Origin: Microcaecilia unicolor
Taxonomy: Eukaryota
Direction: 5' to 3'
Assembly (NCBI RefSeq): GCF_901765095.1
Contig: NC_044037.1
Location: 104,231,279 to 104,295,278 of the forward strand
DNA: 64,000 bases
The notes beneath the pieces were generated by a model that searched no databases, was not told the origin of the DNA, and saw only the letters and a program-made list of their open reading frames with translations. Each line of letters opens with the position of its first letter. The first letter of the stretch is position 1. Made by a program: the position numbers and the translations under genes. Below, in pieces: positions 548 through 63,129 of this stretch.

Positions 548-2480
548 CATTGGTTCAATGATGATCTATTACAAATTAAACATAAATGTAGGAGACAGGA
601 GAGAATTTGGGCTAAGGACAAATCCACTGAACAATGGATTGCTTGGGAAAAAACTTTTGAAAAGCTACAAAGGTATGATTGCCAAAGCGTAAACCTCCTA
701 TTATTCCAAATTCATTGGTGATAATCAACCCGAGGAAACTTTACTCATTAGTTAATAGTTTATTGGACACTCAACTAATAACCAATTCAATCGATCCCAC
801 ACCTATTGCTGACCTCTTTAGCTATTTTAAACAGAAATTAGCTAAAATCAGACTAGAACTTAACAAAACCCCTTCATCTGTAGACTATTTCCTCTATTTA
901 CATGATCCTTTACTTCCTCGTTCTCAAGCAGATAGAATCTGGTCCATTTTTCATCCAATCACTGCTAATCAGGATAATCATACATTACGCAAATACGCAA
1001 ATTCACATTGTCTGCTAGATACGTGCCCTACTTATCTCCTCAAGTCAGCTCCTGATTTATTCTTACATTATTTGCACTTGGATCTTACTTTGATGTTGTC
1101 TCAAGGTTTCTTTCCCTCTGATAATGGCAATATTATTTTGACTCCTATACCTAAAAATACCCAAACTAGCTAGCCTAAGTTTAGTTTCCAAATATAGACC
1201 AGTAGCCTCAATTCCTCTTCTTGTTAAAGTAATGGAAGGACTTGTCATGTGCCAACTTATGGCGTATCTCCAGCTTCATTCCATTTTGCATAGCTCACGA
1301 TCTGGTTTTAGGCCCTCTTACAGTACAGAAACTTTGCTTACTGCCTACAGTACAGAAATTGTGCTTACCTCCAGCTAACTTTAGGAGAGAATTAAGTCTT
1401 GGCAACAAAATATTGATACTTCAGTTTGATCTATCCAGTTCCTTTGATACTATTGATCATAATATTCTTTTAAATATTCTTGACTATTACAGAATCTGTG
1501 GAGTTGTCCTGAAATGTTTTTCTTACTTCTTAAGATCTAGGTCATATCAAGTCAAACAATTAGATGAATTTTCTTCCACTTGGTCTCCTGGCTGTGGGGT
1601 CCCTCACGGTTCCCCTCTTTTCCCCATCTTGTTTAACATTAAGATGATACCTCTTGGTCATCTTTTAGAAAAACATGGTCTTTCGACATACATGTATGCT
1701 GATGATGTTACTATTTATATCCCAGTCTCTAAGGAATTACTTGACATAACTCACATAATTAGTCTAGGGATAAAACTTATGGAATCACGGGCTTCTGATT
1801 TCAAACTAAAACTTTACATAGATAAAACTAAGTTTCTAATTATAACTAACCCTCACCATTCTATGAATCTTAGTAACTTTACTATTAAGATCAAAACCTA
1901 TTTCCTTGAGTCATCAATGAAAATCTTGGGAGTCACAATAGATCATTTCCTCACCATTGAAAACCAAGTCTCAAAGTTGACCTCGAGTGTCTTTCACTCA
2001 CTTTGGAAGCTAAAGAGATTGAGGCCATTTTTCTCTAAATCTGTCTTTCATACTTTGGTTCAACCCCTTGTCCTCACCAAATTCAACTATTGCAATTCCA
2101 TCTATGCTAGACTTAAAGATGGTCTTCTCAAAAAATTACAAACAGCTCAAAATACTGCTGCTTGTCTTATATGTAGATCGCTTCACCAAAGTCACATAAA
2201 ACAGAGAATGTGTCAACAGACACACTACCTGGTCTACCAGTTCTGCTCATTTGCACCGCCCTACTATGCTGTCCCAGGTCTTGACATGATCTGTAGTCTT
2301 TTTTTCTCCCTCCACCACTATGATCCCTTTGTGTATATCTCATGCATGATCCAAACACCTCTACTTCTTCTCATCTATTCAAACCTGCTATTTGGGAAAG
2401 TTGCTACCTTATTAAAATTAGAAAGGATCCTCTTCCCTTCTCACTGTCCTGCTCCTCAATAATGCTTTTTTTTCTGTGCG
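548..2480 (+). mobile_element. L2-clade LINE (family LINE-A) internal fragment, degenerate RT
   Basis: ORFs 679-1173 and 1242-2462 align with the full-length ORF2 at 32190-35477 (KCRRQERIWAKDK.. ~ KTQVRRLERAWNKK; ILLTPIPKNT ~ ILLTPIPKDT; LQFDLSSSFDTIDHNILL; YADDVTIYIP; KLQTAQNTAA); multiple stops. Confidence 0.65.
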
Positions 2481-6454: not shown

Positions 6455-7505
6455 CCATAATTTATTTATTTATTTATTTATTTATTGTATTTGTACCCCA
6501 CATTTTCCCACCTTTTTGCAGGCTCAATGTGGTTTACAGAGTATGGAAATGAAAACGTCATTACATGATTTGAAGACAGAAAAAAAAAGACAGTCAATCA
6601 TAGGCTGAGGTGAAAGAGGAATTCAGATGGAAAGGTGTTAGGTAAGGTCGTGTGAAAGGTGTCTTAGGTGTACTTGGGTAGTTTAAGGAATGATTTGTTT
6701 CATTGAGGGTGACTTTTATAGGCTCTGTTGAAGAGATGTGTTTTCAGGGCTTTGCGAAAGCTTGTTAGATTGGTTATGGTTTTCAGCGCCATGGGTAGTG
6801 CGTTCCAGGACTGTGTGCTTTTGTACGCAAAGGTAGTAGCATAAGCCTGTTTGTATTTCATTCCTTTACAGCTGGGGAAGTTCAGGTTGAGGAATTTGCG
6901 GGCCGATCTTTTGGCATTCCTGGGCGGTAAATCCACTAGGTTTAGCATATAGAGTGGGGCATCTGCATGAATGATTTTGTGTACAGTCGTGCAGATCTTG
7001 AACTCAATTCGTTCCTTGAGCGGGAGCCAGTGTAGTTTCTCTCTGAGGGGTTTCGCACTTTCATATTTAGGTGTTCCAAAAATGAGTCTGGCTGCGGTGT
7101 TCTGGGCTGTCTGGAGTTTTTTGATGGTCTGTTCTTTGCAGCCTGCGTATAGAGCATTACAGTAGTCCAAGTGGCTTATTACCAGTGACTGTATTAGGGT
7201 GCGGAAGATGTTTCTTGGGAAGAAAGGTTTTATTCTTTTGAGTTTCCACATCGATTGGAACATTTTTTTCGTAGTGTTCTTCGCATGGGTGTCGAGAGTG
7301 AGTTTTCGGTCAATGGTGACTCCAAGGATTTTCAGATTTTTTGAGATAGGAAGTGTGCAGTAGGGTGTAGTTATTGTAGGGTAGTTGTTTGTATTGTATT
7401 GGGAGGTGAGAACTAGACATTGAGTTTTTTCTGCGTTGAGTTTTAGCTTGAATGAGTCCGCCCAAGAGTGCATAGTCTGGAAGCTCTGGTTGATCTCGTA
7501 ATTGT
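6455..7505 (-). mobile_element. LINE-A (L2-clade) 5'-truncated copy: ORF2 C-terminus + 3' UTR + (AAAT)n tail
   Basis: ORF 6700-7473 (-) MHSWADSFKLKLNAEKTQCLVLTSQ.. is colinear with 34690-35477 to the stop; reverse complement of 6459-6545 is the LINE-A tail tgtaaaccacattgagcctgcaaaaaggtgggaaaatgtggggtacaaatacaataaataaat. Confidence 0.8.
6700..7473 (-). pseudogene. truncated LINE-A ORF2 C-terminal region (257 aa open)
   Basis: open frame homologous to the last ~260 aa of the 1095-aa ORF2. Confidence 0.75.
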
Positions 7506-8439: not shown

Positions 8440-8795
8440 TATTAGCACACAACTATGGAACACATTACCAAAAAACTTGAAAACCATATACGACCATCTA
8501 CACTTCAGAAAGACACTTAAGACCCACCTGTTTAAAAAGGCATACCCTGCACATCCAACATAACTACCTGAGCTCAGCGACACAACAACGCCAAAGTTCG
8601 TAATGGCCATCACCGAACCCCACCGTCGAACGTTTCCTCTATGTGGTCCTACCACATGAACCTTACCCTATCAAAGCTTCACCTTTGTATTTGTATACAT
8701 CGGAATCTTCAACTGCTCTCCGGCACTATGTAAGCCACATTGAACCTGCAAAGAGGTGGGAAAATGTGGGGTACAAATGTAACAAATAAATAAAT
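8440..8795 (+). mobile_element. LINE-A 3'-end fragment (C-terminal codons + tail), inserted inside the hAT remnant
   Basis: LWNTLPKNLKTIYDHLHFRKTLKTHLFKKAYP then ..ctatgtaagccacattgaacctgcaaagaggtgggaaaatgtggggtacaaatgtaacaaataaataaat. Confidence 0.6.
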
Positions 8796-8849
8796 CCCAA
8801 CAATTTTATTGCTCTACAATTCAATCTACTCCATTTTTGAAAGTGACTG

Positions 8850-8940
8850 TCACTCATATTTTTATTTATTTATTTTATTTGTAGCATTTGTATCCCACAT
8901 TTTCCCACCAATTTGCATGCTCAATGTGGCTTACATTTGC
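8850..8940 (-). mobile_element. LINE-A tail fragment
   Basis: reverse complement of tttgtatcccacattttcccaccaatttgcatgctcaatgtggcttaca. Confidence 0.5.
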
Positions 8941-10589: not shown

Positions 10590-10700
10590 ATAGAACCGCT
10601 ACTTAGAGCCTGCTATAGGACACTAAGAAAGCAAATAGAATGTTAGGTATTATTAAGAAAGGAATGGAAAACAAAAATGAGGACGTTATAATGCCTTTGT
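10590..10700 (+). mobile_element. CR1 ORF C-terminal fragment
   Basis: KANRMLGIIKKGMENKNEDVIMPLYRT (compare KANRMLGIIRKGIENRCEDVIMPLYHS at 28790). Confidence 0.5.
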
Positions 10701-11135
10701 ATCGCACATGCCTATGGAGCCTGCTCAAGGAGCAGGACCCGCACCATAGTGTGCTCTTTTTGTATGACTACTATATCGGCGCTGTGCCATACCCATTCTC
10801 TCCTCTTGTTACCTCTCCTCCCACTGATGTCCCCTTGTTTTTCAATCCTGGTGCACTGAGGCCACCAGCCTGCTCACCCTACTCTGGCCACCACAGACAA
10901 GGTAAGATATCTTTACCCCATACATGCTTCCAACTCCAGCTCTCACACACCACTGTTTCATGTTCCCACCTACAACTAGTCCTTCTCAATGCCCATTCTA
11001 TGAGGGGGAAACACTTTCTTGTGCGGGATCTGATCGTTCAATATTCTATAGATATTCTGTATATTACAGAGACCTGGCTGACCAACAGTGATCTCTCATA
11101 CTTGATAGAAGCAGGTCCTCTGTGATACTCATATC
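10700..11135 (+). mobile_element. L2/RTE-like LINE 5' fragment (start of endonuclease domain)
   Basis: LLNAHSMRGKHFLVRDLIVQYSIDILYITETWL (compare VNARSAVSNSIDILDWITTDKLDLLFITETW at 32620); truncated at ~11135 where the L1 3' end begins. Confidence 0.4.
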
Positions 11136-11761
11136 TTTATACCAATAGAAGTTATACAAAAGGGGGAAGACTGGCCCTCCTAAATCCTTCTACCCTACCT
11201 ATTTGTCCAGCTACCCCTTTTGTGCCCCACCCCATCAAATTCCTACTTTTTAGACCAGTCACATCCCTCCATTAGATTTCCTCCTTATCTATCACCTTTT
11301 GCCATTCACCACCCAATCCTATCAACTTCTCCAAACAACTATTAGTGACCACTGTTTACATTTCTAGAGTCCAATTGTATTCGACAAGCTCAACCTACAT
11401 CTTAGACAACCTTAAAGCCCCTTTCAATGAAGACGTTCAGCACTTTCTTTATGTTTAAATCTATTTTTATTGGATGGCAGTCATAATCAACATCACATTT
11501 TACACAATTCTTCCATATATACTTAAACCCAAGTATTTGACAAAACTTTCATCATATGATTATACATATTATGGGCGAATGCTATCGCCTTGTCTCTTAA
11601 ACTTTTAGTAACAAGAACATCTGTATTGACAGCTTTCACTATACATCTGAATTTGGTTATCTTTCATCCTTTTGAAAACTTTTATCTCCCCTCTCCCTCC
11701 CATTCTAACTCCCCTCTCCCCCCCCCCCCCCCCCCGTCCCTTTTAAGTCATAGCAGTTTAG

Positions 11762-14700
11762 TCAGTAGTTCAGTATGTGGCTACGTGCTGCAGATGTCAT
11801 TGAGTCCCAAAACGGACTCCAACGCTGTTGGAATTTCACTCCAATCCTTGACTCCAAGTCCCTTATAGACATGCGCTCCATACGTAATAGGGACACCATA
11901 CGAACATGCCACTGCTGCCATGTAGGGTATTGATAGGATAGCCACTCTGCAAGGATCGCTTGCTTACCAACAATTATTACTCTCTGTATAAATGCAGCAT
12001 ATCCTTTTTTTTTTGAGGACACCCCCAAGTCTGGATGTCCAAATAGCAACAGTGGGTCATAATGCCATGTTTGTCTCCATATCTTGGTGACCCAGGCTAT
12101 GATTTGTTTCCAAAATTTCTGTATACCGACGCAAGTCCAAAACATATGGCCTAGAGTAGCTCCTGGGGCACCACATTTTACACAATCTCCCCAGGGCAAT
12201 AACCCCATGTAAAATGCTCGTTTTGGTGGGATGTACAGGCGTAGAGCTATTTTATATTGTAGTTCCCAGTGGGTCGCAAAATCTGTGACTCATCTTATCT
12301 GCAGGACATGAGATTTCAGCTGTTGTTCTAAGACTGTTATTTGCAAATCCCCAGTCCACAAGTGTGCCAATCTGCGGTATTCCAGTTCTGCGGTTGTATC
12401 CCGTATATGTCTGTGATGATACGACATCGGTACTCTCTGCTGCGACTCCAAGGTAAAAGCTGAAGAGAGTTCTTCTTGAACATCTTCTGTCATCGATGTC
12501 CATGGTAGTGTAGAGATATAGTGGCTCAGCTGTCCATAATAAAATTTATCACTGTCCAATAGTGTATATTCGTTTTGCAAGTCTGGAAACGTTCGCATAT
12601 GACCTTCTCTAGTCACCACTTGTAACAAATATACTATTCCTTTTTGTTTCCATTTTTGAAATACAGAGTACATTTGACCTGGTACAAAAGCAAAGTTATC
12701 ACAAATTTGTAAGTATGGTGTCACTTTTATATCAAAGTGGTGTAATCGGCACACCCATCTCCATATTGCTCTAGCCGTTGTCATAATCCCAGAGTATTTT
12801 AAGGTATATGGCATGGGTGCGCCTGTAGCGTGTAGGTAATTGCTAAAATGTAATTTCGGGGTAAGGCTCAATTCTAGGGCTGTATTTGTGTAATCACTGG
12901 TATTCCTATACCAGTCATTTATGTGCCTCATTCCGCTAGCAACATTAAGATAGCGGAGGTTTAAGACTCCCATCCCTCCATATTCCACTGGTATACTTAA
13001 AGAATTAACAGATAAACGGGCCTTTTTCCCTTTCCAAAGAAAGGTCTGTAGCTGTTGATTCAAAATCTGTTCATCTTTTCTCCTCAAATACAGTGGTATA
13101 GTTTGAAAACAATAAATCCATCTGGGGGCTATAATCATATTAAATAATGCTATTCTCCCTAGTAACGATACCGGGAGTGCACTCCAAGTTTGTAAACTTA
13201 ATTTTGTGTCTGTAAGCAGTTTTTGTAAATTAAGTTCATATAGCTGTGACAACTGATCTGGAATGCGGATTCCCAAATACTTAATAAATCTCTTCTCCCA
13301 AGTAAGGGGAAAATTATTCTTCCAATCTTGGTTATCTCCCTTAACTACCTCTAACGCTGACGATTTAGACATATTTAGCTTAAGACCTGATAGTTGTCCA
13401 TATCTATTTATCTCAGTTAACAAAACTCGCATTGATCTAGGTGGGTCAGTGACAGTCAACAGCAAGTCATCAGCGAAAGCCAGTACCTTCACCTGCTGTC
13501 CTGCCACCGATATTCCTGTAATGTTTCTTTGTTTCATGAGTGTACGTATGAGTGGTTCTAATGATATCACAAAGAGGGAAGGTGAAAGAGGGCAACCTTG
13601 CCTAGTACCCCTCATAATCTCAAACTCTTTCCCTCGCAATCCATTAACCAACACTTGTGCTCCTGGCTTGTAGTAAAGAGCCTGAGTCGCTCACAGAAAC
13701 CAGCCTGTAATTCCCATAGCTTCCATAGTATGAAATAAGTATTCCCACCCTACCCTGTCAAATGCTTTATCTGCATCTAGACTCACTATTACTGATGGGA
13801 TCTCCCCCTCTTGGCTGGATGCCATCGCCAATAATAGGCGGCGTACATTATGCGTGGCTTGCCTATTTCGAACAAAGCCTACTTGCTCCATTCCAATTAA
13901 TTTGGGCAGATATTTTGCAAGTCTTTCCGCCAGTATTCCTGCCAACAGTTTTGTGTCTACGTTCAACAGAGATATTGGTCGGAAATCTTCTGCTCTATTA
14001 TGCGGTCTTCCCGGTTTAGGTATTAATGTAATTAAAGCTGAGTTGGCAAAACGGGGGAAGCCCCTCCTCTCTATCACCTCCTCAAAATATTCTAGTAATG
14101 CCAGCTGTGCTTCCAGGGGCAAGCTTTTGTAATATTCCCCGGAATACCCATCGGGTCCTGGTGCCTTGCGTAATTTAAGTTTCTTAATCGCCTGTTGCAG
14201 TTCTCCCAGGATCAGTGGTGCATTTAGCACAGTCAATTCTTCACTCGTCAACTTTGTGAGCCCCGCCTTATCTAAGTATTCGTGTACCAAACTTGGTTCT
14301 GGTGGAGCACTGGCTGAGTAAAGTGAGGTGAAATGATTAGTAAAACCCTGCCCAATTTCATTTTGTGTGACTATAATTTTACCTGTATCATCCTTTAACG
14401 CAGCCACCACCCGAGGTGCACCCCAATTTTTGATAACTCTAGTTAATAACCTCCCTGTTTTATTACCAAAACGTTGCAATTTATATTTATAGTAGATCGA
14501 GGATCTGGTCTCATTTTCATGCAATAAAGTGTTTAGAGTTATTTGGATTGCTTTCATATTCTCTAAAGCAGTTAATGTGTGTTTATGTGCATATATTCTC
14601 TTAGCTTTCGCTAGCTGTTTTTCTAGGCGCAGAATGTTTGCCACCCGCCGCTTTCTCCTAATATTACAATAGGCTATGAGGTCACCTCTCAAGACTGCTT

Positions 14701-15571
14701 TCGAGGCAGACCAAAATAAAGATGGGTCTGTTTGTGCATGTTCCTTATTATTAATAGCGTAATCACCCCACTTATTTGCCAAGTATTTCTGAAACAGGGG
14801 GTCGTTATGTAAATATGCTGGGTATCGCCATCCTGTTCCTCCAGCACCCCCGCCCGTAATCTCGAGATCTAGCCACACTGATGCATGGTCTGATATTTCT
14901 TCCGGTCCTATATGGGCTGCCTTTACCTGGGAAAACATAGATCTTTCTATGAATATGTAATCTAACCTCGCTAAGGTGCCATGTGCCCTGGATCTATGTG
15001 TGTAATCTTTTTCCCCAGGATGCATCACTCTCCAGGTATCCACTAGGTTTAGAGCTTTTGTGAACATTTTCAATCCTTTCGCCCTCTGTCCTAAATAATG
15101 TGATGAAGTGGGATTTGAGGTATCTTCTCTTGGATTAGATACTAAATTAAAGTCACCCAATACCAACAATTTATTTATTTTATGTTGGATACAACTATTT
15201 TCTAGCGATCTGAAAAACCCTGGGTCATATTCATTTGGGCCATATACCCCCACTAATAAAAATTCAGTGCCCTGCATCCATACCTTTAAAAGGAGGGTAC
15301 ACCCGTGTTTCCCTTTCTCCACTACCGATATTTTACATGCTAGTCCTTTTCGGATTAATACCACCACTCCACCTCGGCGCCCTTTGGCTGCTACTGCATG
15401 GCATTCCCCCACCCATGATCTTTGCAACTTTGCATGTTCCACATCATTAAGTCTCGTTTCCTGAAGGCAAACTATATCAGCCTTATACCTTTTTAAGGCC
15501 GTTAAGATTTTATTCCGCTTTATAGGGGATGTTATACCCCCCACATTCCAAGATATTATTCTAATTGGCAT
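11762..15571 (-). pseudogene. L1 ORF2 (AP-endonuclease + reverse transcriptase + C-terminal Cys domain), single frame interrupted by two in-frame stops
   Basis: MPIRIISWNVGGITSPIKRNKILTALKRYKADIVCLQETRL.. (EN); ..FADDLLLTV.. (RT); C..C..HMFWTC (C-term). All three pieces share the reading frame (end coordinates congruent mod 3). Confidence 0.8.
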
Positions 15572-15969
15572 ACCATGAAAGTAATATTAGTATTCCCACC
15601 ATCACCACCATATAAGGGCACCCCCTTGTTCATTGAGCACATATTGTAATTTGTCAGGTTTCTCATAATCTGTGCACATAAATATTCTATTAATAAGTTT
15701 CTAAATAAACATTTCTTACTGACCATCTGCCAAAGATTTCCCCCCAATCTATTTCCCCTTCCCCCCTCCCATCCCCTTATCCCATCAACCCCACATATAC
15801 CCTTCCCCATCCACCTAAACTAGTCAGGTGTTGAGATAAGGACTTCAGTGAACAGTAGAGACCCCAAACTCCACAGATTAACCAAACATACATACATACA
15901 CTTATTCTGAAGGTTTTATACATTGTAACTCCCACAGAACGCTTCTGCACAATGGAAATAAACTTATGT

Positions 15970-16836
15970 TCAAACAGCATCAATGATGTTATTTTCGACG
16001 AGATATTTTTTCGCATCTGATACTGTAGGGAATATTTTCCACTGGTCCTGTATGAGCACTTTTAATTGGGCTGGGTATTGCAATACAAAGCGGATTTTCT
16101 TAAGTACCAAGGTTGAACAAATCGCATGATATTGCCTCCGTTTCTCTTGAACTAGAGTAGAAAAGTCTTGAAAAATCAACACATTCTTTTTATTGTATTT
16201 CAGCGTATCTCTTTTGTGCTTGAATCCTTGAAGGATTTCTAATTTATGGCGATAATTTAGTATTTTCGCGACAACCACGCGTGGGCGGTTATTATGGCAA
16301 TCCTCTGTTCGGCGGCCCACGCGGTGTGCTCTTTCCACAATAAGCGGTCCCATCGTATCTGTAATCGCTAACTCTTTTGAGAGCCATGTTTCCAGCCACG
16401 TGTCAAGGTTTCTTTCTGGGAGCGCCTCGTCCAGTCCGACAATCCGTATATTATTTCGACGTGCTCGATTTTCAAAGTCATCCAACAAGTTTCTTTGATC
16501 TGCGAGCTGGCGTCGTAGGTTTATAATATCTGGGCTAAATCCACGTGTATCATCTTCAACGGCTGAAATTCTGGCCTCCAAATCTCCTACCCGGATTCCC
16601 ATCCCGTCTAATGTAGTTTGGTAAGCTTCTATTTTGGTATTCAGCGCTTCCCATTTCGGCTCCCATGCTTTCGTGATCGCCTGGGTAAGCTGCAGGAGTT
16701 GATTTTCAGTAAACGCAGGTCCCATAATCGCGGGTTCCTCCGCCATCTTGGTATCCCCGCTGCCTGTTTTAAGTTTGTCTTTTTTCACGGATTTTTGAGC
16801 CATGTCTTTCGGAAGCACTTTGTAGTATTTTTCCAT
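15970..16836 (-). CDS. L1 ORF1p (coiled-coil + RRM-like + CTD), apparently intact, 288 aa
   Basis: ..LEARISAVEDDTRGF..DFENRARRNNIRIVGLDE..PRVVVAKILNYRHKLEILQ..VLIFQDFS..; homologous to the ORF1 at 36295-37203. Confidence 0.75.
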   Translation of the reverse strand: MEKYYKVLPKDMAQKSVKKDKLKTGSGDTKMAEEPAIMGPAFTENQLLQLTQAITKAWEPKWEALNTKIEAYQTTLDGMGIRVGDLEARISAVEDDTRGFSPDIINLRRQLADQRNLLDDFENRARRNNIRIVGLDEALPERNLDTWLETWLSKELAITDTMGPLIVERAHRVGRRTEDCHNNRPRVVVAKILNYRHKLEILQGFKHKRDTLKYNKKNVLIFQDFSTLVQEKRRQYHAICSTLVLKKIRFVLQYPAQLKVLIQDQWKIFPTVSDAKKYLVENNIIDAV

Positions 16837-16839
16837 ACA

Positions 16840-16960
16840 GTGAAGTCGTTCCGTAGGTTTTATTTATGCAAGATTTATATTTTAGTGGAGTCAGGGGTCT
16901 CAGAGCTTCGACAGCACGCTGCTCCCTAGCTCATGACGTCACCGGAAGTCCTCAGCACTT
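16840..16960 (-). promoter_or_regulatory. putative L1 5' UTR internal promoter with CRE (TGACGTCA) adjacent to ETS-like CCGGAAGT
   Basis: agctcatgacgtcaccggaagtcctc at 16925-16950; similar region (gtcacgtgatg, gctccgagacccc) at the 5' end of the second L1 (~36160). Confidence 0.3.
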
Positions 16961-17699
16961 TCTTTAAAGTTTACCCCTCCACCTTCACATAATTGTTCCC
17001 ACAATATAGCGCCGAACACACCCTGGAGCTTCTCTGTTTATCAGTACTGGTGCTGCAACATTTGAGGCTCTTTTCTCTTTAGTTCCTTCTAAGGCAGGGT
17101 TTCTCAAGCAAGTCCTTGGAACACATATGGTCAGTCAGGATATCTACAATGAATATGCATGAGTTCGATTTGCATAGAATAGAGGAAGGGCATGCAAATA
17201 TCTCTCATGTATATTTATTGTGGATATCATGAAAACCTGATTAGCTGGGTGTGTCCTGAGGGCTAGGTTGAGAACCCCTGTTCTAACAGTTGCAGCTACT
17301 GCCAAGTTTTTAAATTTTAGTTCTATGTTCTCTGCCTTCTACAGCATGAATTTTATGACATATTATTCTGTCTTTTCTTTAATTACATTTTTTCAATTTA
17401 ACATTTCCAAATAAGATGAGGGAAAGGACAAAAAAAAAATCACAGAAAAGCAGCAAAAGGAAGAAGAGAAACATGAAAGCACCATCTGTCAAAAAGTCCA
17501 CTTTACATGACCTATTACTGTTGAATAAATGATGAAAACTTTTTTTTAACTTGTAAAACTATTTATTATTGTAATAGAGCCATTTCCTGCTGGGTCACTG
17601 GTCCTGGAAGTTACAGAATCTGTGAAAAGAGCAAGAAAATCATGATACATGTTGGCATCCTGTATTAAGACAATTAAGGAAAGTGTTTTTCATGTGTTA

Positions 17700-25548: not shown

Positions 25549-27178
25549 GAGATAAAATTTCTAGAAGTAATTAATGACTGCTTCTTGCAGCAGCTAGTCC
25601 AGGAACCGACAAGAAGGGTAGCTATTTTGGATCTGGTCCTTGGTGGCATGCAGGGCATAGTTTGAGAGGTGGCGGTGTTGGGTCCCCTGGAAAAGAGTGA
25701 TCATAACATGATTAAATCTGAGCTACACCTGCAAAGGAAATCTACTGTAGCTGCATTTCATTTTCGAAAGGGCAACTATAATAAAATGAGGAAAATGAGT
25801 GGAGGAGTGGCCTAGTTGTTAGGGTGGTGGACTTTGGTCCTGGGGAACTGAGTTTGATTCCCACTTCAGGCACAGGCAGCTCCTTGTGACTCTGGGCAAG
25901 TCACTTAACCCTCCATTGCCCCAGGTACAAATAAGTACCTGTATACAATATGTATGCCGCATTGAGCCTGCCATGAGTGGGAAAGCGCGGGGTATAAATG
26001 TAACAAAAAAATGGTTAAAAAGAAACTAAAAGGATTGGCTGCAAAGGTTAGGACATTAAATCAGGTGTGGACTTTACTCAAAAAAATACCATCTTGGAAG
26101 CCCAGTCCAGATGCATTCCATGTATTTGCAAAGGTGAAGAGAAGAGAAAACGTCAGCCAGCATGGTTAAAAGGTGAAGTAAAAGAGGCCATTACAGCCAA
26201 AAGATTGTCCTTCAAAGAATAGAAAAAGCACACAAATAAAGAAAATAAGAAGCAACATAAGCACTGGCAAGTCACATGCAAAGCATTAATAAAGAAGGCT
26301 AAAAGAGAATATGAAGAGAAACTTGCCACAGAGGCTAAAACTAACAGTAACAACTTTTCCAGGTACAACAGAAGCAGAAAGCCTATAAGGGAATCCATGG
26401 GACCGTTAGATCATGAAGGAGCAAAAGGGGCACTCAGGGAGGACAAGGCCATAGCGGAGAAACTGAATGAATTCTTTGCTTCTGTCTTTACAGAAGAAGA
26501 TGTAAGAGATCTGCCTGTACCGGAAATGGTTTAGAAGGGTGATGATGTGGAGGAACTGAAAGAAATGTCGGTGAACCTGGAAGAAGTACTGAGCCAAACT
26601 GACAAATTAAAGAGTAGTAAATCACCTGGACTGGATGGCATACATCCAAGAGTACTCAAAGAACTCAAGCATGAAATTGCTGATCTGCTGTTAGTAATAT
26701 GTAACCTGTCATTAAAATCGTTCGTAGTATCTGAAGATTGGAGGGTGGCCAATGTGATGCCGATTTCTAAAAAGGGTTCTAGGTGTGATCCGGGAAATTA
26801 CAGACCGGTAAGCCTGACATCAGTGCAAGGCAAAATAATGGAAACTATTATAAAGAATAAAATTAAAGAACCAGTACACAAACATGGTTTAATGGGACAG
26901 TCTGCATGGGTTCAGCCGAGGGAAGTCTTGCCTCACCAATTTGCTTCTTTTCTTTGAAGGCGTGAATAAACATGTGGATAAAGGTGAGCCGGTTGATGTA
27001 GTGTATCTAGATTTTCAAAAAGCTTTTGATAAAGTTCCTCATGAGAGACTCCTGAGAAAATTGAAGAGTCATGGGATAGGACGCAAGGTTCTGGTGTGGA
27101 TTGAGAATTGGTTATTGCACAGAAAACAGAGGGTAGGGTTAAATGGTCATGTCTCTCAATGCAGGAGGATAATCAGTT
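25548..27178 (+). mobile_element. CR1-A copy 1, 5' part (EN C-term, linker, RT N-term); continues at 29512-29560 and 30187-30725
   Basis: ..ILDLVLGGMQGIV..SDHNMIKSELHL..FHFRKGNYNKMRKM[SINE]..KKKLKGLAAKVRTLNQVW.. then ORF 26547-26957 SKSPGLDGIHPRVLKEL..EDWRVANVMPISKKG..GNYRPVSLTS and 26941-27165 FFEGVNKHVDKGEPVDVVYLDFQKAFDKVPHERL..RVGLNG. Confidence 0.7.
25802..25995 (+). mobile_element. tRNA-derived SINE with MIR-like core and LINE-A-derived 3' tail, inserted in CR1 copy 1
   Basis: ggaggagtggcctagttgttagggtggtgg..gagtttgattccc (A/B-box-like) ; gggcaagtcacttaaccctccattgcccc (MIR-like core) ; tgtatgccgcattgagcctgccatgagtgggaaagcgcggggtataaatgtaacaaaaaaa (LINE-A-like tail); flanks ..aaaatgagt | aaaaaaatgg.. 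suggest a short AAAATG-like TSD. Confidence 0.6.
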
Positions 27179-29510
27179 TTGATATCAACCTTGAAGTAAC
27201 TATACATAGGAAGTTAAATACGTTAGCGTTTAACTTTAAAAAAGGAGACTATGATAAAATGAGAAGAACGGTTAAGAAAAAACTTAGAGGGGCAACTGAG
27301 ACGGTAAAAACTGTACAACAGGCATGGATGCTATTCAAAAATACCATCCTGGAGGCCCAGGCCAAACATATTCTGCGAATTAGAAAAGAAAGACGGAAGT
27401 CCAAAAGACAGCCGGCGTGGTTAAAAAGTGAGGTGAAGGAAGCTATTAGGGCTAAAAGAAACGCCTTCAGAAAATGGAACAAGGAACCGTCTGAAAATAA
27501 CAAGAAGCAGCATAAGGAGTGTCAAAGCAAATGCAAGGCGCAGATAAAGAAGGCCAAGAGGGATTATGAAAAAAAGATAGCAGTAGAGGCAAAAAAACAT
27601 AGTAAAATTTTTTTCGGTATATTAAAAGCAGGAAGCCGGCAAAAGAATCGGTTGGGCTGCTGGATGACCGAGGGGTAAAAGGGGCGATCAAGGAAGACAA
27701 AGACGTAGCGGAGAGATTAAATGAATTCTTTGCTTCGGTCTTCCCCCAGGAAGAATGGGTGGGATACCGGTGTCAGAAATGGTATTTCAAGTGGACGAGT
27801 CGGAGAAACTTACTGAATTCACGGTAAACCTGGAGGACATAATGGGGCAGTTCAGCAAACTGAAGAGTAGCAAATCACCTGGACCAGATGGTATTCATCC
27901 TAGAGTACTGATAGAACTGAAAAATGAACTTGCGGAGCTACTGTTAGTGATATGCAATTTATCCTTAAAATCGAGCGTGGTACCGGAAGATTGGAGGGTG
28001 GCCAATGTAACGCCGATTTTTAAAAAAGGTTCCAGGGGAGATCCAGGAAATTATAGACTGGTGAGTCTGAAGTCAGTGCCGGGGAAAATGGTAGAGGTTA
28101 TTATTAAAAACAAAATTACAGAGCACATCCGAGGACATGGATTACTGAGACCAAGTCAGCACGGCTTTAGTGTGGGGAAATCTTGCCTGACCAATTTACT
28201 TCAATTCTTTGAAGGAGTAAACAAACATGTGGACAAAGGGGAGCCGGTTGATATTGTGTATCTGGATTTTCAAAAGGCGTTTGACAAGGTGCCTCATGAA
28301 AGACTACAGAGGAAATTGGAGGGTCATGGGATAGGAGGTAATGTTTTATTGTGGATTAAAAACTGGTTGAAGGATAGGAAACAGAGAGTGGGGTTAAATG
28401 GGCAGTATTCACAATGGAGAAGGGTAGTTAGTGGGGTTCCTCAGGGGTCAGTGCTAGGACCGCTGCTTTTTAATATATTTTCAAATGAATTAGAGATGGG
28501 AGTAACTAGCGAGGTAATTAAATTTGCTGATGACACAAAGTTATTCAAAGTCATTAATTTGCGAGAGGATTGTGAAAAATTACAGAAGGACCTTACGAGA
28601 CTGGGAGACTGGGCGGCTAAATGGCAGACGACGTTTAATGTGAGCAAGTGTAAGGTGATGCATGTGGGAAAAAAGAACCCGAATTATAGCTACGTCATGC
28701 AAGGTTCCACGCTAGGAGTTACGGACCAAGAAAGGGATCTGGGAGTCGTCGTTAATAATACACTGAAACCTTCTGCTCAGTGTGCTGCTGCGGCTAGGAA
28801 AGCGAATAGAATGTTGGGTATTATTAGGAAAGGTATAGAAAACAGGTGTGAGGATGTTATAATGCCGTTGTATCATTCCATGGTGCGACTGCACCTTGAG
28901 TATTGTGTCCAATTCTGGTCGCAGCATCTCAAGAAAGATATAGTGGAATTGGAAAAGGTGCAGCGAAGGGTGATAAAAATGATAGCGGGGATGGGACGAC
29001 TTCCCTATGAAGAAAGACTAAGGAGGCTAGGGCTTTTCAGCTTGGAGAAGAGACGGCTGAGGGGAGACTTGATAGAGGTATATAAAATAATGAGTGGAGT
29101 GGAACAGATGGATGTGAAGCGTCTGTTCACGCTTGCAAAAAATAGTAGGACTAGGGGGCATGCAATGAAACTACAGTGTAGTACATTTAAAACAAATAGG
29201 AGAAAATATTTCTTCACCCAACACATAATTAAACTCTGGAATTTGTTGCCAGAGAGCGTGGTGAAGGCGGTTAGCTTGGCAGAGTTTAAAAAGGGTTTGG
29301 ATGGTTTCCTAAAGGATAAGTCCATAGACCGCTACTAAATGGACTTGGGAAAAATCCACAATTTCGGGAATAACATGCATAGAATGTTTGTACGTTTGGG
29401 AAGCTACCAGGTGCCCTTGACCTGCATTGGCCGCTGTCGGGGACAGGATGCTGGGCTTAATGGGCCTTTGGTCTTTTCCCAGTATGGCATTACTTATGTA
29501 CTTATGTAAC
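27178..29510 (+). mobile_element. CR1-A copy 2 (5'-truncated, young), nested inside copy 1; ends in 8-bp (CTTATGTA)2 tail
   Basis: starts in linker (FNFKKGDYDKMRRTVKKKL..), intact RT to stop, 3' UTR ..attggccgctgtcggggacaggatgctgggcttaatgggcctttggtcttttcccagtatggcattacttatgtacttatgta. Confidence 0.8.
27755..29338 (+). CDS. CR1 ORF2 reverse-transcriptase region through native stop (527 aa open, partial: 5'-truncated element)
   Basis: SKSPGPDGIHPRVL..DWRVANVTPIFKKG..NYRLVSL..LDFQKAFDKVPH..SGVPQGSVLGPLLFNIF..KFADDTKL..FNVSKCKVMHVG..EYCVQFWS..VQRRV..RGH..FFTQ..WNLLP. Confidence 0.85.
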   Translation: MGGIPVSEMVFQVDESEKLTEFTVNLEDIMGQFSKLKSSKSPGPDGIHPRVLIELKNELAELLLVICNLSLKSSVVPEDWRVANVTPIFKKGSRGDPGNYRLVSLKSVPGKMVEVIIKNKITEHIRGHGLLRPSQHGFSVGKSCLTNLLQFFEGVNKHVDKGEPVDIVYLDFQKAFDKVPHERLQRKLEGHGIGGNVLLWIKNWLKDRKQRVGLNGQYSQWRRVVSGVPQGSVLGPLLFNIFSNELEMGVTSEVIKFADDTKLFKVINLREDCEKLQKDLTRLGDWAAKWQTTFNVSKCKVMHVGKKNPNYSYVMQGSTLGVTDQERDLGVVVNNTLKPSAQCAAAARKANRMLGIIRKGIENRCEDVIMPLYHSMVRLHLEYCVQFWSQHLKKDIVELEKVQRRVIKMIAGMGRLPYEERLRRLGLFSLEKRRLRGDLIEVYKIMSGVEQMDVKRLFTLAKNSRTRGHAMKLQCSTFKTNRRKYFFTQHIIKLWNLLPESVVKAVSLAEFKKGLDGFLKDKSIDRY

Positions 29511-30739: not shown

Positions 30740-33700
30740 TTTTTTTATTTATAAATTTAAATCATTATTTCAAGGATTTACACTTGATCAGGAAAGTGTT
30801 ATTAACAATCAAAATATTAAAGGAAATGTTATATAACATATATAATAACATTCAGGCCGACAGGTAAGGAGCTCAGGTAAGGAGCTCCTGAGGTCCAGAA
30901 CAAAAAGACCTACCTGACCATCCAACGCCGTTCACGACCGGTCTGGAATGGACCGGAACTGAAACGGAACTGATCCAAAGCCGACTGGGGAGCTGCAGGA
31001 CCACGGGCTGAACGCCAGCACGAACGAACAAACCCGAGACGACCTGTCTGCTAGTTGCCACGAGGTCGAAACGCATCCCTGGCCGGCAAGGACCACCTGG
31101 GCATATTTAAGCCTGCCTGGATCAGTCTGATCAACCCCAGCCGAGCTGAATCTGGAGCTGAGACCGCAGCTGAAACCGACCGGTGGATCACCAGCGGTCC
31201 GACCGGACTGAAATCCAGCCGGGCGGAGGCCAACCGACGGCCTAGCGGGAGACCGCCACGAGGTTCACCACGAGGTTGCGCCCCCGCAATCCGAATCAGG
31301 AGCACCGGAGAGACCATCGAAACCGGTGTGGAGACGGAGAGCCCAGAGGTGGAGAACCCAGAGGTGAGCCGCGACCACATCTTACAACTCCGCGTGGCCA
31401 CCCAGTGAGTTCGGGGAGCCGTGTTCGTGGCACCGGAAACGATCCGGCCGACCACGCGACCGGTGGAAAGTTGACCGGACAGTGGTTCGAAGCCCGGAAG
31501 GCCGCGGAACAAGCGGAGCGCCGACCGGCCTGGTTGGCCTGAGGACTGGAAAACAGGAGCGGCCTATCCCCAATGTGGCACGCTCCAGAATCGTCCGACT
31601 GCTGCCCAGGAAGCCGCAAGCGGATTGAGGGAAGTAGGCGCACCCCGCACCCGACTGCTCCACGCGTCGGAGCGCAGACAGACAAGAGTCGACCAGCTTG
31701 AGGTGCGGCAAAGCGACGGCGACTCCTGAGCCACACACAAGTCCTGTGGTGGCTGCATTAGAGACACCGAGCACCAGACAACCGAGCCACTGGTCCCCGT
31801 GGCTGCTGGGAACAGGAGCTACCTCCCGAGGCTGAACTGAGTAATAAAATACCTGCTCGTCTTAAATGCATGCATGCACTGCTTTAGCATGATTTAAAAA
31901 TCCTCGCTATACTCTGCTCACACTAAACTGAATGCAACTGTGTCTTAGGCCAATATAGCACCTTTAAATGTTGCCAAGCTTTAATTTAAATTGCTGCTAA
32001 GACCAATGCATAATAGCGAACTGTTACCAAGCAAGCTTTAGCTTTTACATAATTTAAAATCCTTGCTTCACCCTGCTTTGCTTTGCTTTGCTTACTGCCA
32101 GCTTTGAACTAAACTGTTGCTAAGCTTAATTGAAAATGTTAGCACTACTCCGCGTGAATTGTAGCCAAGCTCAAATGCAATTGTAAACGTTGTATCGCTC
32201 AAATACACACCAATTACTTATTTGTCACAGCACCCAACACACAGAAATGAACACCAGCAATACACTCATAACCATCCAGTGTCTCATTATATTCGTACAC
32301 GCAAACACAACACAAAACCTAGACAACAACAACTCCACTACTCACAATCCGCATAACACTCACACACACACCATGCATGCCCAAAACAACAACCCACTTA
32401 CATATCACCAATCCCATGCACAACCTTTAAACAACCTACCAAATCAAAGACACAACAACAACCAACCAACTGGAACAAACCCCGAATATGTACACCACCG
32501 ACGAAATAAGGAAAACAATGAAAACAACAGACTCAACCAACGAAAAAACAGACAGTTAATAAAAATAAACACATCTAACCCCACCTTGGAACCACATCAC
32601 CCAATCCAACTAGGATACGTCAATGCAAGATCAGCAGTAAGCAACTCGATAGACATACTAGATTGGATCACCACAGACAAACTAGACCTCTTATTTATCA
32701 CAGAAACCTGGTTCCATAGTCCTACGGACCCCGCCATCCTACAAACGTGCCCACCAGAATACAAAATCACGCACTGGACAAGAAATGGAAAAAAAAGAGG
32801 AGGCGGAATAGCTTTAATACACAAACCTGAATTCACCATCACAATCACAGGCGAATCTACCTCACCACAACTTGAAATTGCTTCGACAAGAATCAACCAT
32901 CCAAGCCTAATAGGACACCTTAACACAATCCTATTCTACAGGCCACCAGGAAAATGGCAAGACGCCCAAACACAACTCATGGATTTCATCTCGAATACCT
33001 GCGTATCAACCTCAAACATCCTCATACTAGGCGACATCAACTTACACCTAGAAGATGACACCATACCAAGTACACGAGAATTCAAAGAACTCCTACAACT
33101 CTGGGATCTGCAAATACCCAACTTACAACCAACACATGAAAAAGGACACACACTAGATATCATAACAAATAGACTCGAACCGAATTCAACTATCACACTT
33201 ACCAACACAAAATGGACACCCACATTATGGTCAGACCACCATAAAGCAAATGTCACCCTTTACTGGCAAAAAATACAACCAAACACAATCAACAAACATG
33301 AGCGAACAACCTACACAACGAGAGGAAAAATAAACCCCACAACATTCTGGCAACAGATCTACCAGAGCGAATGGATTACAAACGCTAGCACCATCCAATT
33401 CCTCCAAGAATGGGACGATATAAGCATAACAACATTAGACAAAATCGCCCCAGCCCAAACCAGAACATCACACAGGAAAAATGCAAATCCATGGTTCAAT
33501 GAAGAGCTGAAAAAACTGAAAACACAAGTCAGGAGACTTGAACGAGCCTGGAACAAAAAGAGAGATGAACAAACACTAAACGACTGGAAACAACTTCGAA
33601 GAAAATACAAATACACCATCAAACAGACAAAAAGACTACACTACAAAACATTAATAGGACCAAACTACAAAGACACACATAAACTCTTCAACCTCGTAAA

Positions 33701-35830
33701 CAAACTGTTAGACACCACACCTGTCACAACCAACAGCAAAGATATACCAAGTGTCGACAACCTTGCAAAATACTTCAAGGAGAAAATTGTACAATTACGA
33801 CACAAAATACCCGCAAGCCCTATAGAATACACCGTTCTCCTAGACTGTCTAGATCCAGTAGAAGGAACACACCCAGCAGACAGAACCTGGACCGAATTTG
33901 AACTATTACCAGAAGAACTCATCTCTAAAACTCTCAAAAAATATGCCAAATCTAACTGCAAACTAGACAAATGTCCAAACAGCCTCATGCAAACTGCTCC
34001 TCAACAATTCATAATAAACCTAACAAACCACATAAACTACATGCTACAAAATGGACTCTTCCCAAAAGAAAAAGGAAAAATCTTACTCACACCAATTCCT
34101 AAAGACACAAAGAAAAACACGAGCGAAATAACCAACTACAGGCCAATTGCATCCATACCACTAATAACCAAGATAACCGAAGGTATGGTTACCAAACAAC
34201 TCACAAACTATCTAGACAAACATTCAATATTGCACGATGCCCAATCAGGATTCCGTTCGAATCACAGCACAGAAACAGTATTAGTCACCCTTATGACCAA
34301 ATTCAAACAAATAATTGCAACCGGCAACAATATACTCCTACTACAATTTGACATGTCTAGCGCCTTCGACATGGTTGACCATGAAATCCTACTACACATA
34401 CTTGAATACTTTGGCATCGGAGGAAATGTCTTGAATTGGTTCAAGGGGTTCCTAACCCTGTGCTCGTACCAAGTCACATCAAATTCAACCACGTCCAAGG
34501 CATGGATACCTGAATGTGGAGTCCCACAAGGATCACCTCTCTCTCCAACTATATTCAACCTAATGATGATCCCTTTAGCAAAACTCCTATCAAACCACAA
34601 CCTCAACCCGTATATATATGCCGATGATGTAACCATATACATCCCATTCAAACAAGACATCAAAGAAATCTCCAGTGAAATCAATCAAAGTCTACACATC
34701 ATGAACACATGGGCAGATGCATTCCGCCTGAAACTAAACGCAGAAAAAACCCAAAGCCTGATACTCACCTCCCAATACAACACAACTGAGTTCAACGTGA
34801 TAAACACACCAAACCTAAAACTTCCAATCTCAGAAACGCTAAAAATCCTTGGAGTGACTATCGACCACCACCTAACACTCAAAACTCACGCAAATAACAT
34901 AACCAAGAAGATGTTCTTCAGCATGTGGAAATTGAAAAGGATTAGACCATTCTTCCCAAGATCCGTCTTCCGTAGCCTAGTGCAATCCCTCGTCCTTAGC
35001 CACTTGGACTACTGCAACTCATTATACGCAGGCTGCAAAGAGCAAATACTGAGGAAACTTCAAACAGCCCAGAACACAGCAGCCAGGCTCATCTTCGGAA
35101 AACCTAAATATGAAAGGGCAAAACCACTACGAGAGAAACTACATTGGCTTCCACTCAAGGACCGCGTTACTTTTAAAACTTGCACACTAGTCCATAAGAT
35201 CATTTACGGTGAAGCCCCAGCGTACATGTCTGATTTAATAGACCTACCACCTAGAAATGCCAAAAGATCGTCCCGAACTCACCTCAACCTCCACTACCCA
35301 ACCTGCAAGGGCTTGAAGTACAAGACGATACACGCGTCAACCTTTTCCTACAAGAGCACGAAGTCCTGGAATACATTACCACGCAACCTAAGAATGATTA
35401 ACGAACAAACCTCCTTCCGTAAACTACTGAAGACACACCTGTTTGAACAAACCTACGGAAAGAGCCAAAACACATAGAAACTACTGACTGTTCACAATGC
35501 AATACACATCCACATCTGATCCATCATCCCTTTATCCAGTCAATCACACATTCAACCATGGAACTACAGTATGTACACTATATGTCTAGGTGCCTATTAA
35601 TGCCCTTTTTTCTCTCATTGTCTCCTTCTAATGTCCCTATGTTGTTGTCCCACTGCTATACTACTAAGGATATTCGAATGTCTCGCACAACTCTGTTCAA
35701 TGTATTCTATAACCTAGTCGTAACAAATGTATTTCTATTATTCAAGTCTTATTGTAAGCCACGCTGAGCCCGCAAATAGGTGGGAAAATGTGGGATACAA
35801 ATGCAACAAATAATAATAATAATTATATTA
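30740..35830 (+). mobile_element. full-length L2-clade LINE (LINE-A): ~1.4-kb 5' UTR (CpG-rich block 30870-31850, ~130-bp tandem repeats 31870-32130), ORF2, 350-bp 3' UTR ending in the family tail + (AATA)n
   Basis: tail at 35750-35825 tgtaagccacgctgagcccgcaaataggtgggaaaatgtgggatacaaatgcaacaaataataataataat; 5' boundary inferred from where CR1 copy 1 breaks off (30725). Confidence 0.7.
32190..35477 (+). CDS. LINE-A ORF2: AP-endonuclease + reverse transcriptase + L2-type C-terminal region, 1095 aa, intact
   Basis: ..SIDILDWITTDKLDLLFITETW.. (EN); ..YRPIASIPLITKITE..FRSNHSTETVLV..LLQFDMSSAFDMVDHEILL..GVPQGSPLSPTIFNL..YADDVTIYIP (RT); ..HWLPLKDRVTFK..LWN.LP..FRKLLKTHLF (C-term). Confidence 0.88.
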   Translation: MYRSNTHQLLICHSTQHTEMNTSNTLITIQCLIIFVHANTTQNLDNNNSTTHNPHNTHTHTMHAQNNNPLTYHQSHAQPLNNLPNQRHNNNQPTGTNPEYVHHRRNKENNENNRLNQRKNRQLIKINTSNPTLEPHHPIQLGYVNARSAVSNSIDILDWITTDKLDLLFITETWFHSPTDPAILQTCPPEYKITHWTRNGKKRGGGIALIHKPEFTITITGESTSPQLEIASTRINHPSLIGHLNTILFYRPPGKWQDAQTQLMDFISNTCVSTSNILILGDINLHLEDDTIPSTREFKELLQLWDLQIPNLQPTHEKGHTLDIITNRLEPNSTITLTNTKWTPTLWSDHHKANVTLYWQKIQPNTINKHERTTYTTRGKINPTTFWQQIYQSEWITNASTIQFLQEWDDISITTLDKIAPAQTRTSHRKNANPWFNEELKKLKTQVRRLERAWNKKRDEQTLNDWKQLRRKYKYTIKQTKRLHYKTLIGPNYKDTHKLFNLVNKLLDTTPVTTNSKDIPSVDNLAKYFKEKIVQLRHKIPASPIEYTVLLDCLDPVEGTHPADRTWTEFELLPEELISKTLKKYAKSNCKLDKCPNSLMQTAPQQFIINLTNHINYMLQNGLFPKEKGKILLTPIPKDTKKNTSEITNYRPIASIPLITKITEGMVTKQLTNYLDKHSILHDAQSGFRSNHSTETVLVTLMTKFKQIIATGNNILLLQFDMSSAFDMVDHEILLHILEYFGIGGNVLNWFKGFLTLCSYQVTSNSTTSKAWIPECGVPQGSPLSPTIFNLMMIPLAKLLSNHNLNPYIYADDVTIYIPFKQDIKEISSEINQSLHIMNTWADAFRLKLNAEKTQSLILTSQYNTTEFNVINTPNLKLPISETLKILGVTIDHHLTLKTHANNITKKMFFSMWKLKRIRPFFPRSVFRSLVQSLVLSHLDYCNSLYAGCKEQILRKLQTAQNTAARLIFGKPKYERAKPLREKLHWLPLKDRVTFKTCTLVHKIIYGEAPAYMSDLIDLPPRNAKRSSRTHLNLHYPTCKGLKYKTIHASTFSYKSTKSWNTLPRNLRMINEQTSFRKLLKTHLFEQTYGKSQNT

Positions 35831-36294
35831 GATTCCATAATTACAAATAAGAGGAAAAAATAAGGAAACATTTTTTTAAAGGCAATTAAGCACCTAAGAT
35901 AGGATAGGAATTAAACAATTACTCTCCTGAAGCTCTTTTTGAGGCAACAAAGGATGTTTAATGGGAAGGTTCCATGAATATATATTTAACTGCATTATGT
36001 CTTATGATACATTTGCAAGGATATCTCAAATAGAATGTGCTCCCTAGTTGCAAAACGGCAGATTTCAATATTAGAAATTGTTTCCTCCTTCGCTGGGTTT
36101 CTCTCAAAACATCAGGGAACAGAAGAATTTTTAAACCCAAAAATAATAAAGGAGTCACGTGATGCTAGGCGAAAGGAAGGTCGCCGCTTGTTAGAGCTCC
36201 GAGACCCCTCATAGAACAACTTCCCCTAGCGCTGCACACATCAGCAGAAAAACCCACGAAATCGAGCCAGAAGGGTAAGGGAAACTTCTCCAGT

Positions 36295-46148: not shown

Positions 46149-46377
46149 TAGTTAGTCAAATAATAAAGCTATAATGCATCCACTCTTCCTGTGTAAAACA
46201 TACTAAACAATTGGAACCTCAAATCTCCTGATAGGGGGTTGTAATATTGTTGGATATTCCCCGTCACTTTGGGAGTCCATTTATATCATTGGTTCCTAAG
46301 AGGAAATAAAAGAGCCAGTGTAAAAAAAACCTCCTAGCTGATGGAGAAAATCAACTTAACATAGTAACATACATGGA

Positions 46378-63118: not shown

Positions 63119-63129
63119 TTAGGACAGAC

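Follow-up and report, generated by a model that had tools for sequence, protein, structure and literature searches.

Two long interspersed nuclear elements (LINEs) of the L1 clade lie, one on each strand, within a 64,000-nucleotide stretch of the Microcaecilia unicolor genome (contig NC_044037.1, positions 104,231,279 to 104,295,278 of the forward strand; hereafter the window), and they raise the question of what these copies are, how recently they arrived and what has broken them. An earlier note, made from the DNA letters alone, had described near-complete copies of a single, recently active L1/Tx1-type family that were disabled only by in-frame stop codons. Our analysis makes it very probable that copy 1 (minus strand) and copy 2 (plus strand) are two independent full-length L1 insertions, that they represent two deeply diverged families of the type found in non-mammalian vertebrates, and that both were inserted recently.

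The limits of the elements are set by their target-site duplications (TSDs). A perfect 15-bp direct repeat, TCAGCACTTTCTTTA on the plus strand, occupies 11437-11451 and 16952-16966, and because it flanks exactly these ends, copy 1 comprises 11452-16951 on the minus strand (5,500 bp). By the same reasoning, a perfect 16-bp repeat, TAAACCCAAAAATAAT, at 36132-36147 and 43244-43259 places copy 2 at 36148-43243 on the plus strand. When the flank pairs were shuffled 300 times, the longest common word was 13 for copy 1 and 14 for copy 2, against the 15 and 16 observed. The earlier note, which had proposed a search for TSDs at the element edges, was thus right about loci and strands but wrong about both 3' ends. 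It had let copy 1 begin at 11140, although the ~310 bp at 11140-11451 are flanking DNA, and it had delimited copy 2 as 36150-41900, where 41900 only marks the point at which a ~1.05-kb element breaks the 3' untranslated region (3'UTR). The parts of the two copies, including their open reading frames (ORFs), are as follows.

11437-11451, no strand: TSD on the 3' side of copy 1, an exact 15-mer that abuts the L1 3' end ...AATAAAAATAGATTTAAACA
11452-11761, minus strand: 3'UTR of copy 1, 310 nt, with a G-rich polypurine tract, AATAAA near the end and no poly(A), as read from the sequence
11762-15571, minus strand: ORF2 of copy 1, 3,810 nt, 1,269 codons plus terminator, with APE endonuclease, reverse transcriptase (FADD) and CX2CX8HX4C
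15572-15969, minus strand: spacer between ORF1 and ORF2 of copy 1, 398 nt, with G-rich stretches
15970-16836, minus strand: ORF1 of copy 1, 867 nt, intact, 288 aa, with coiled coil, RRM and C-terminal domain (CTD), type II
16837-16951, minus strand: 5'UTR of copy 1, 115 nt, beginning GGACTTCCGGTGACGTCATGAGC
16952-16966, no strand: TSD on the 5' side of copy 1, an exact 15-mer match to 11437-11451
36132-36147, no strand: TSD on the 5' side of copy 2, an exact 16-mer match to 43244-43259
36148-36330, plus strand: 5'UTR of copy 2, 183 nt, with GAGCTCCGAGACCCCT ~45 nt from the start
36331-37203, plus strand: ORF1 of copy 2, 873 nt, 290 codons, with an in-frame TGA at 36757-36759 where copy 1 has W
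37204-37864, plus strand: spacer between ORF1 and ORF2 of copy 2, 661 nt, with a G-rich and then a T-rich tract and an out-of-frame ATG at 37846-37848
37865-41659, plus strand: ORF2 of copy 2, 3,795 nt, ~1,264 codons, without an in-frame ATG, with APE endonuclease, reverse transcriptase (FADD) and CCHC motif
41660-41906, plus strand: first part of the 3'UTR of copy 2 (531 nt in all without the nested element), with a T/C-rich polypyrimidine tract
41907-42956, plus strand: nested non-autonomous element of ~1.05 kb with terminal and subterminal inverted repeats
42957-43243, plus strand: second part of the 3'UTR of copy 2, ending ...TCAATAAAAAATGTTGAACCA, homologous to the 3' end of copy 1 and without poly(A)
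43244-43259, no strand: TSD on the 3' side of copy 2, an exact 16-mer match to 36132-36147

Both copies are complete, without 5' truncation, because the TSDs sit exactly at their ends, their 3' ends are homologous and copy 1 carries a conserved 5' motif. The 5' terminus of copy 1, GGACTTCCGGTG, matches the conserved L1 5' termini on record, which read GACTTCCGGTG in lizard clade 1 and GGACTTCCGGTT in zebrafish (PMC5381506). In copy 2, the motif GAGCTCCG stands ~45 nt from the start; all frog L1 families have this motif in common ~40 nt from theirs (PMC5381506). A further motif, CAA(G/A)ATGGCGG (encoding K-M-A-E), is conserved within both ORF1s, at 16745-16755 on the minus strand and 36385-36396 on the plus strand, that is, ~80-90 nt past the first ATG in copy 1 and ~55 nt past it in copy 2. 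It resembles the YY1 core CAAGATGGC at the 5' ends of mammalian L1 (PMC5381506), and it may mark either a promoter element or the codon at which ORF1 truly starts.

The proteins identify the elements as L1. Pfam Exo_endo_phos (APE-type endonuclease) and RVT_1 (reverse transcriptase) are present in ORF2 of both copies, as are the FADD and CX2CX8HX4C motifs, in keeping with the earlier description of two near-complete L1-clade copies. Residues 8-1232 of human L1 ORF2p (8sxt_A) align with residues 3-1234 of the copy 1 ORF2 in a single stretch (E=1.9e-130). Human L1 ORF1p (2ykp_A, residues 2-198) was matched by a profile built from both ORF1s, through the coiled coil, RRM and CTD (E=3.4e-13); Pfam Transposase_22 gave only a sub-threshold match to ORF1 (E=0.0026). 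No zinc knuckle (CX2CX4HX4C) occurs in either ORF1, and the two contain only 2 and 5 cysteines. The GC content of the copies is 42-45%.

Of the combined label L1/Tx1, the L1 half therefore appears sound, since ORF1 is of the human type II and lacks a zinc knuckle, and the alignment of ORF2 to human ORF2p is end to end; on this basis both copies resolve to L1 proper, and the Tx1 label was rejected because it would require an ORF1 of a different type. The Tx1 subgroup, which includes Xenopus Tx1L, does resemble the present elements in an ORF2 that combines APE endonuclease with reverse transcriptase, and it is found beside L1 in fish and amphibians. Tx1-group elements are site-specific; the two target sites seen here, with one insertion available per family, are each unique and show no relation to one another. 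No repeat in the window spans either L1 junction, and none could thus serve to reconstruct an empty site; an L2-like fragment beside copy 1 stops ~270 bp short of the junction. PMC5203782 classes the ORF1s of the Tx1 group as type I variants in which an RRM is combined with zinc-knuckle domains, in contrast to the type II ORF1s found here.

The two copies are not close relatives of each other. Their ORF2 proteins are 35% identical and their ORF1 proteins 33%, and we therefore place them in separate families. The degree of difference resembles the divergence of ~38.5% reported between frog L1 families within a clade (PMC5381506). A single shared family was rejected in view of the 35% ORF2 identity, and with it that part of the earlier proposal which envisaged one recently active L1-type family; the recent activity itself, argued below, would be needed in two separate families.

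A search for ORF2 homologues returned fish and frog L1 proteins as the best relatives, at ~30-35% identity, and the best named matches are annotated as LINE-1 ORF2 proteins. The exception was a Microcaecilia unicolor gene model fused with an L1, with 47% identity over the N-terminal half. As ORF2 is otherwise at most 35% identical to the retrieved proteins, these exact families are not represented in the protein collection searched. Exact-protein look-ups of the copy 1 ORF1, of its 626-aa ORF2 fragment and of the Microcaecilia match P0185 found no record. When the window was searched by tblastn with the four L1 proteins, no more fragments of either family appeared, only a distant CR1 reverse transcriptase.

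How well have the reading frames survived? We built a profile hidden Markov model from 154 full-length L1 ORF2 homologues and scanned all frames of each copy with it. Each copy gave one domain in one frame, covering profile positions 17-1273 in copy 1 and 17-1270 in copy 2, and no significant off-frame match was found in either. A hidden, compensated frameshift inside ORF2 was rejected on these grounds. The ORF2s of the two copies are colinear end to end, with 17 gapped positions in 1,272 columns. In composition-matched shuffles the stops in an ORF2 frame numbered ~77-83, with a minimum of 52, compared with the two observed, so the frames are far from chance. The claim that ORF1 and ORF2 each keep a single frame without frameshifts thus withstood scrutiny (288 aa and 1,269 codons in copy 1; 290 and ~1,264 codons in copy 2), and both the pairwise alignment and the profile show that the pieces joined in the earlier note belong to one colinear ORF2.

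The interruptions are single stop codons, as many as had first been noticed. In copy 1, ORF2 runs from the ATG at 15571 to the TGA terminator at 11764-11762 and contains two premature stops, both TGA, at 13693-13691 and 12292-12290. In copy 2, a TGA interrupts ORF1 (36757-36759), and ORF2 is broken by a TGA (41096-41098) and by a TAG (41282-41284), the latter within the CCHC motif. Uninterrupted ORF1 and ORF2, as found in retrotransposition-competent L1, are thus lacking from both copies, and neither can now encode the full proteins.

The statement that stops alone disable the elements holds for copy 1. It is doubtful for copy 2, which has the ~1.05-kb element in its 3'UTR and no in-frame ATG ahead of the endonuclease domain in ORF2. 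At this point copy 2 reads ...*DRRLNPLRLISWNVGG (the asterisk denoting a stop), compared with MPIRIISWNVGG in copy 1, and the Microcaecilia relative P0185 begins MVNIVTW at the equivalent position. The closest ATG, at 37846-37848, is 1 nt out of frame and meets a stop after 10 codons. Copy 2 may have lost the start codon, may carry a 1-nt indel at the very N-terminus, or may initiate ORF2 at a codon other than AUG.

Every one of these stops is a single-nucleotide change, and the conserved catalytic and structural residues are otherwise intact, as would be seen if one or both copies were in truth intact and active and the stops reflected assembly or sequencing errors or a minor allele. We nevertheless regard this as exceedingly improbable. 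Five independent stop-making errors within 9.3 kb of coding sequence would hardly be expected of a modern assembly, and copy 2 in addition lacks the ORF2 ATG and carries the 1-kb insertion.

Several lines of evidence agree that the insertions are young, and from them we infer both recent insertion and, for each parent family, activity until recently. The TSDs are identical at all 31 of 31 positions over both copies, which by our calculation is unlikely once each side has diverged by more than ~5%. The observed/expected ratio of CpG is 1.13 in ORF1 of copy 1 and 0.84 in ORF1 of copy 2, compared with 0.60 for copy 1 as a whole and 0.39 elsewhere in the window. Among the 154 homologues, 41 ORF2 columns reach a conservation of at least 98%, and copy 1 departs from none of them and copy 2 from one; at the 53 columns conserved to at least 95%, the violations number one and three, respectively, one of them common to both copies. 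Finally, since ~5% of random substitutions in the ORFs of the copies would create a stop, the two stops of copy 1 and the three of copy 2 imply ~40-60 substitutions, or ~0.9-1.3% divergence (Poisson range ~0.1-4%), on the assumption that the copies acquired them once inserted and did not take them over from a defective progenitor. Because perfect TSDs, retained CpG, conserved residues and stop counts concur, it is reasonable to call the insertions recent in relative terms, with decay of ~1% and not zero. The original suggestion of very recent insertion is supported in this sense.

Some observations nonetheless weigh against recent insertion of two ordinary L1 elements. No second copy of either family was found in the window, so both the age and the recent activity rest on internal evidence. 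From the usual ratios of indels to substitutions, a small number of indels might be expected alongside ~40-60 substitutions; none is present, although the numbers are too small to decide. The stops could come from a defective progenitor instead of having arisen in place. The element nested in the 3'UTR of copy 2 is only ~80% identical to another copy of it in the window, a value that, if it measured age, would conflict with a young L1. Lastly, neither L1 copy has a tail, whereas PMC5381506 reports AATAAA with a poly(A) tail behind it at the L1 3' end of all the species it examined.

The nested element bears on age. Its second copy, at 46368-47454 on the minus strand, aligns with 41907-42956 at both ends; the termini are ~80% identical and the centres unrelated. 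The ends of the ~1.05-kb inverted-repeat element read ...ATAATCGAAC.../...GTTCGATTAT..., and the copy at 46368-47454 is flanked by a perfect 8-bp TSD (8/8), GTTACTAT, which would suit a hAT-like element; the nested element resembles a DNA transposon. The putative 8-bp TSD of the element within copy 2 is imperfect, matching at 6/8 positions (TAGAATAA vs CACAATAA), but its placement may be off by a few bases. Taken at face value, the 80% identity and the imperfect TSD would make the nested insertion older than the insertion of copy 2 itself, a possible order of events if the 3'UTR of the L1 progenitor contained the element beforehand. Unless that was so, the nested element stands outside the L1 family proper.

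The same two figures, 80% and 6/8, would also follow if the L1 insertions were old and their frames had been kept open by selection on a domesticated function or by gene conversion from active relatives. This we consider very unlikely. The L1 TSDs are perfect over 31 bp, which would be hard to reconcile with more than ~5% divergence on each side, ORF1 CpG stands at 2-3 times the background level, and the stops in ORF1 and ORF2 leave no room for a full-length protein that has been domesticated. In addition, because the central parts of the two nested-element copies are wholly different, the 80% identity probably reflects divergence between subfamilies and not age. Recent insertion of both L1 copies thus remains the favored reading.

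What, then, produced the stops? Deamination of CGA to TGA at CpG sites had been offered as an explanation for the TGA codons. It was rejected for the ORF1 TGA of copy 2, which aligns with a W codon of copy 1 (FLET*L vs WLETWL). The TAG of copy 2 likewise occupies a column in which 125 of 155 homologues, and copy 1, have W. Because both positions are W codons in relatives, these two stops derive from TGG by G-to-A and not from CGA. The other three TGA stops lie in variable columns (S/K/N/Q, S/K/T/N and E/D), where CGA-to-TGA is possible.

A third private change of copy 2, G472R in the conserved PGPDG motif (GGA to AGA), is again G-to-A on the sense strand. All three changes of copy 2 for which an ancestral state can be assigned (the ORF1 TGA, the TAG and G472R) are therefore of one kind, and several point defects coexist with no indels, a combination that would fit copies dead on arrival: the stops and the missing ATG would have come from a progenitor that was already defective and was mobilised in trans, or would have been made during retrotransposition, one route being AID/APOBEC-type cytidine deamination of first-strand cDNA, which would give G-to-A on the sense strand. 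So few G-to-A events are, however, an anecdote and not evidence for editing. Only three events can be inferred, transitions are the commonest substitution anyway, and a fourth private change in copy 2, E669D, is a transversion. Preference of the L1 machinery for its own RNA in cis, which is established for mammalian L1, further speaks for intact RNAs as the source of most new copies. Such an origin is accordingly rather unlikely, and we prefer to view the stops as having arisen in place after insertion.

The 3' ends of the two copies are unusual. In each, AATAAA stands ~12-14 nt from the end, and the element finishes in CA with the TSD following at once (...AAACA|TAAAG in copy 1 and ...AACCA|TAAAC in copy 2, the bar marking the junction). 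Neither copy has a poly(A) tail, and no terminal run exceeds three A. The last ~28 nt of the copies, TGCCATCCAATAAAAATAGATTTAAACA and TGTCATCAATAAAAAATGTTGAACCA (11452-11480, minus strand, and 43215-43243, plus strand), are homologous, and both families have in common the terminus CATC(C)AATAAAAAT..TT.AAC(C)A despite their 35% ORF2 identity. The absence of tails may be due either to priming at the very start of the tail or to TAAA microhomology. Homologous tail-less 3' ends at TSDs that begin with TAAA suggest precise positioning of the 3' end or priming by microhomology.

Pressed further, these data could mean that the copies represent tail-less L1 lineages whose 3' end is precisely recognised and positioned, as in 'stringent' LINEs, that the family of copy 2 has captured a transposon in its 3'UTR, and that copy 2 itself has been inactivated by G-to-A editing. 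Taken together this is an unlikely scenario. The evidence bearing on capture is that the TSD of the nested element matches at 6/8 positions while that of the copy 2 L1 matches at 16/16.

In the interpretation we prefer, that of two recent, ordinary L1 insertions, an L1 RNA would in each case have been copied into the chromosome by target-primed reverse transcription, as known from L1 biology. The nick would have been made at an AT-rich site, TTT/(T)AAA, and the outcome would be a complete element between target-site duplications of 15 or 16 bp. Both TSDs indeed begin with TAAA and are preceded by runs of T, which fits a TT/AAAA-like L1 target.

The surrounding DNA is a dense patchwork in which at least three LINE clades are represented, the two L1s included. 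Some 700 bp upstream of copy 2, at 32190-35477 on the plus strand, lies an uninterrupted 1,095-aa ORF with endonuclease and reverse-transcriptase domains, apparently an intact L2/CR1-like LINE, whose best database matches are only ~30% identical. Older relatives of it occupy 679-2462 (plus), 6700-7497 (minus) and 63079-63999 (plus). CR1-like LINE fragments, which carry the typical C-terminal motif ...IMPLY...LEYCVQFWSP..., are found at 26547-29338, 44388-45123 and 10640-10760 on the plus strand and at 47658-48107 and 48685-49281 on the minus strand; the segments 26007-27177 and 27264-28432 form a tandem or nested pair with 72% identity.

A module of ~70-80 bp containing ...GCCACGCTGAGCCCGCAAATAGGTGGGAAAATGTGGGATACAAATGCAA... 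recurs with 82-94% identity at 35753-35828, 6458-6544, 8725-8936, 56487-56568 and 60676-60753. Its occurrence at 35753-35828, ~280 bp downstream of the 1,095-aa LINE ORF, is followed by an (AAT)n run, and the module may be a LINE 3' tail held in common with a short interspersed nuclear element (SINE). Tandem arrays at 59275-59556 and 59924-60076, built of a 49-bp unit (x5.7, 92% match) and a 15-bp unit (x~10), bear no relation to the L1s. Scanned in full against Rfam, the window gave no match.

Two young L1s disabled by stops fit the published pattern of L1 in non-mammalian vertebrates and are in that sense ordinary. Their value for annotation lies in exact boundaries, TSDs and defects for two full-length elements from families without close relatives among the proteins searched. 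With the copies as a starting point, a family consensus could be built and intact copies could be counted across the host genome. The lack of poly(A) tails and the nested element in the 3'UTR of copy 2 go slightly beyond the textbook. The locus also adds an example to the contrast between mammals, with one active L1 lineage of huge copy number, and fish, amphibians and reptiles, with many divergent families that have few young copies each.

The closest counterparts are the L1 elements of frog (Xenopus tropicalis), zebrafish and Anolis clade 2 (Boissinot and Sookdeo 2016, PMC5381506). These resemble the present copies in a length of ~5.5-6 kb, a short 5'UTR, a long spacer, an ORF2 of ~3.8 kb and a similar GC content. 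The GGACTTCCGGTG 5' terminus and the internal GAGCTCCG motif of the copies match those on record there, G-rich stretches in the spacer and polypurine or polypyrimidine tracts in the 3'UTR recur, and a single genome likewise contains young copies of highly divergent families. The part lengths fall in or near the ranges for frog, fish and lizard clade 2; the 398-nt spacer of copy 1 lies inside that for spacers (257-1,032 nt), whereas the 5'UTR (183 nt) and 3'UTR (531 nt) of copy 2 exceed the frog maxima of 162 and 365 nt (PMC5381506). The copies described here differ in having no poly(A) after AATAAA.

Human LINE-1 (L1HS; ORF2p 8sxt/8uw3, ORF1p 2ykp) shares the bicistronic layout, an ORF1p with coiled coil, RRM and CTD, and an ORF2p with endonuclease, reverse transcriptase and Cys-rich C-terminus that aligns end to end with the copies; it also has TSDs at AT-rich TT/AAA-like sites, and a G-rich polypurine tract like that in the 3'UTR of copy 1. 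In contrast to the human element, the 5'UTRs of the copies are ~10 times shorter and have no YY1 site at the start, their spacers are long where the human one measures 63 nt, and they have neither an A-tail nor an A-rich base composition. Furthermore, a single active lineage in human stands against many coexisting families.

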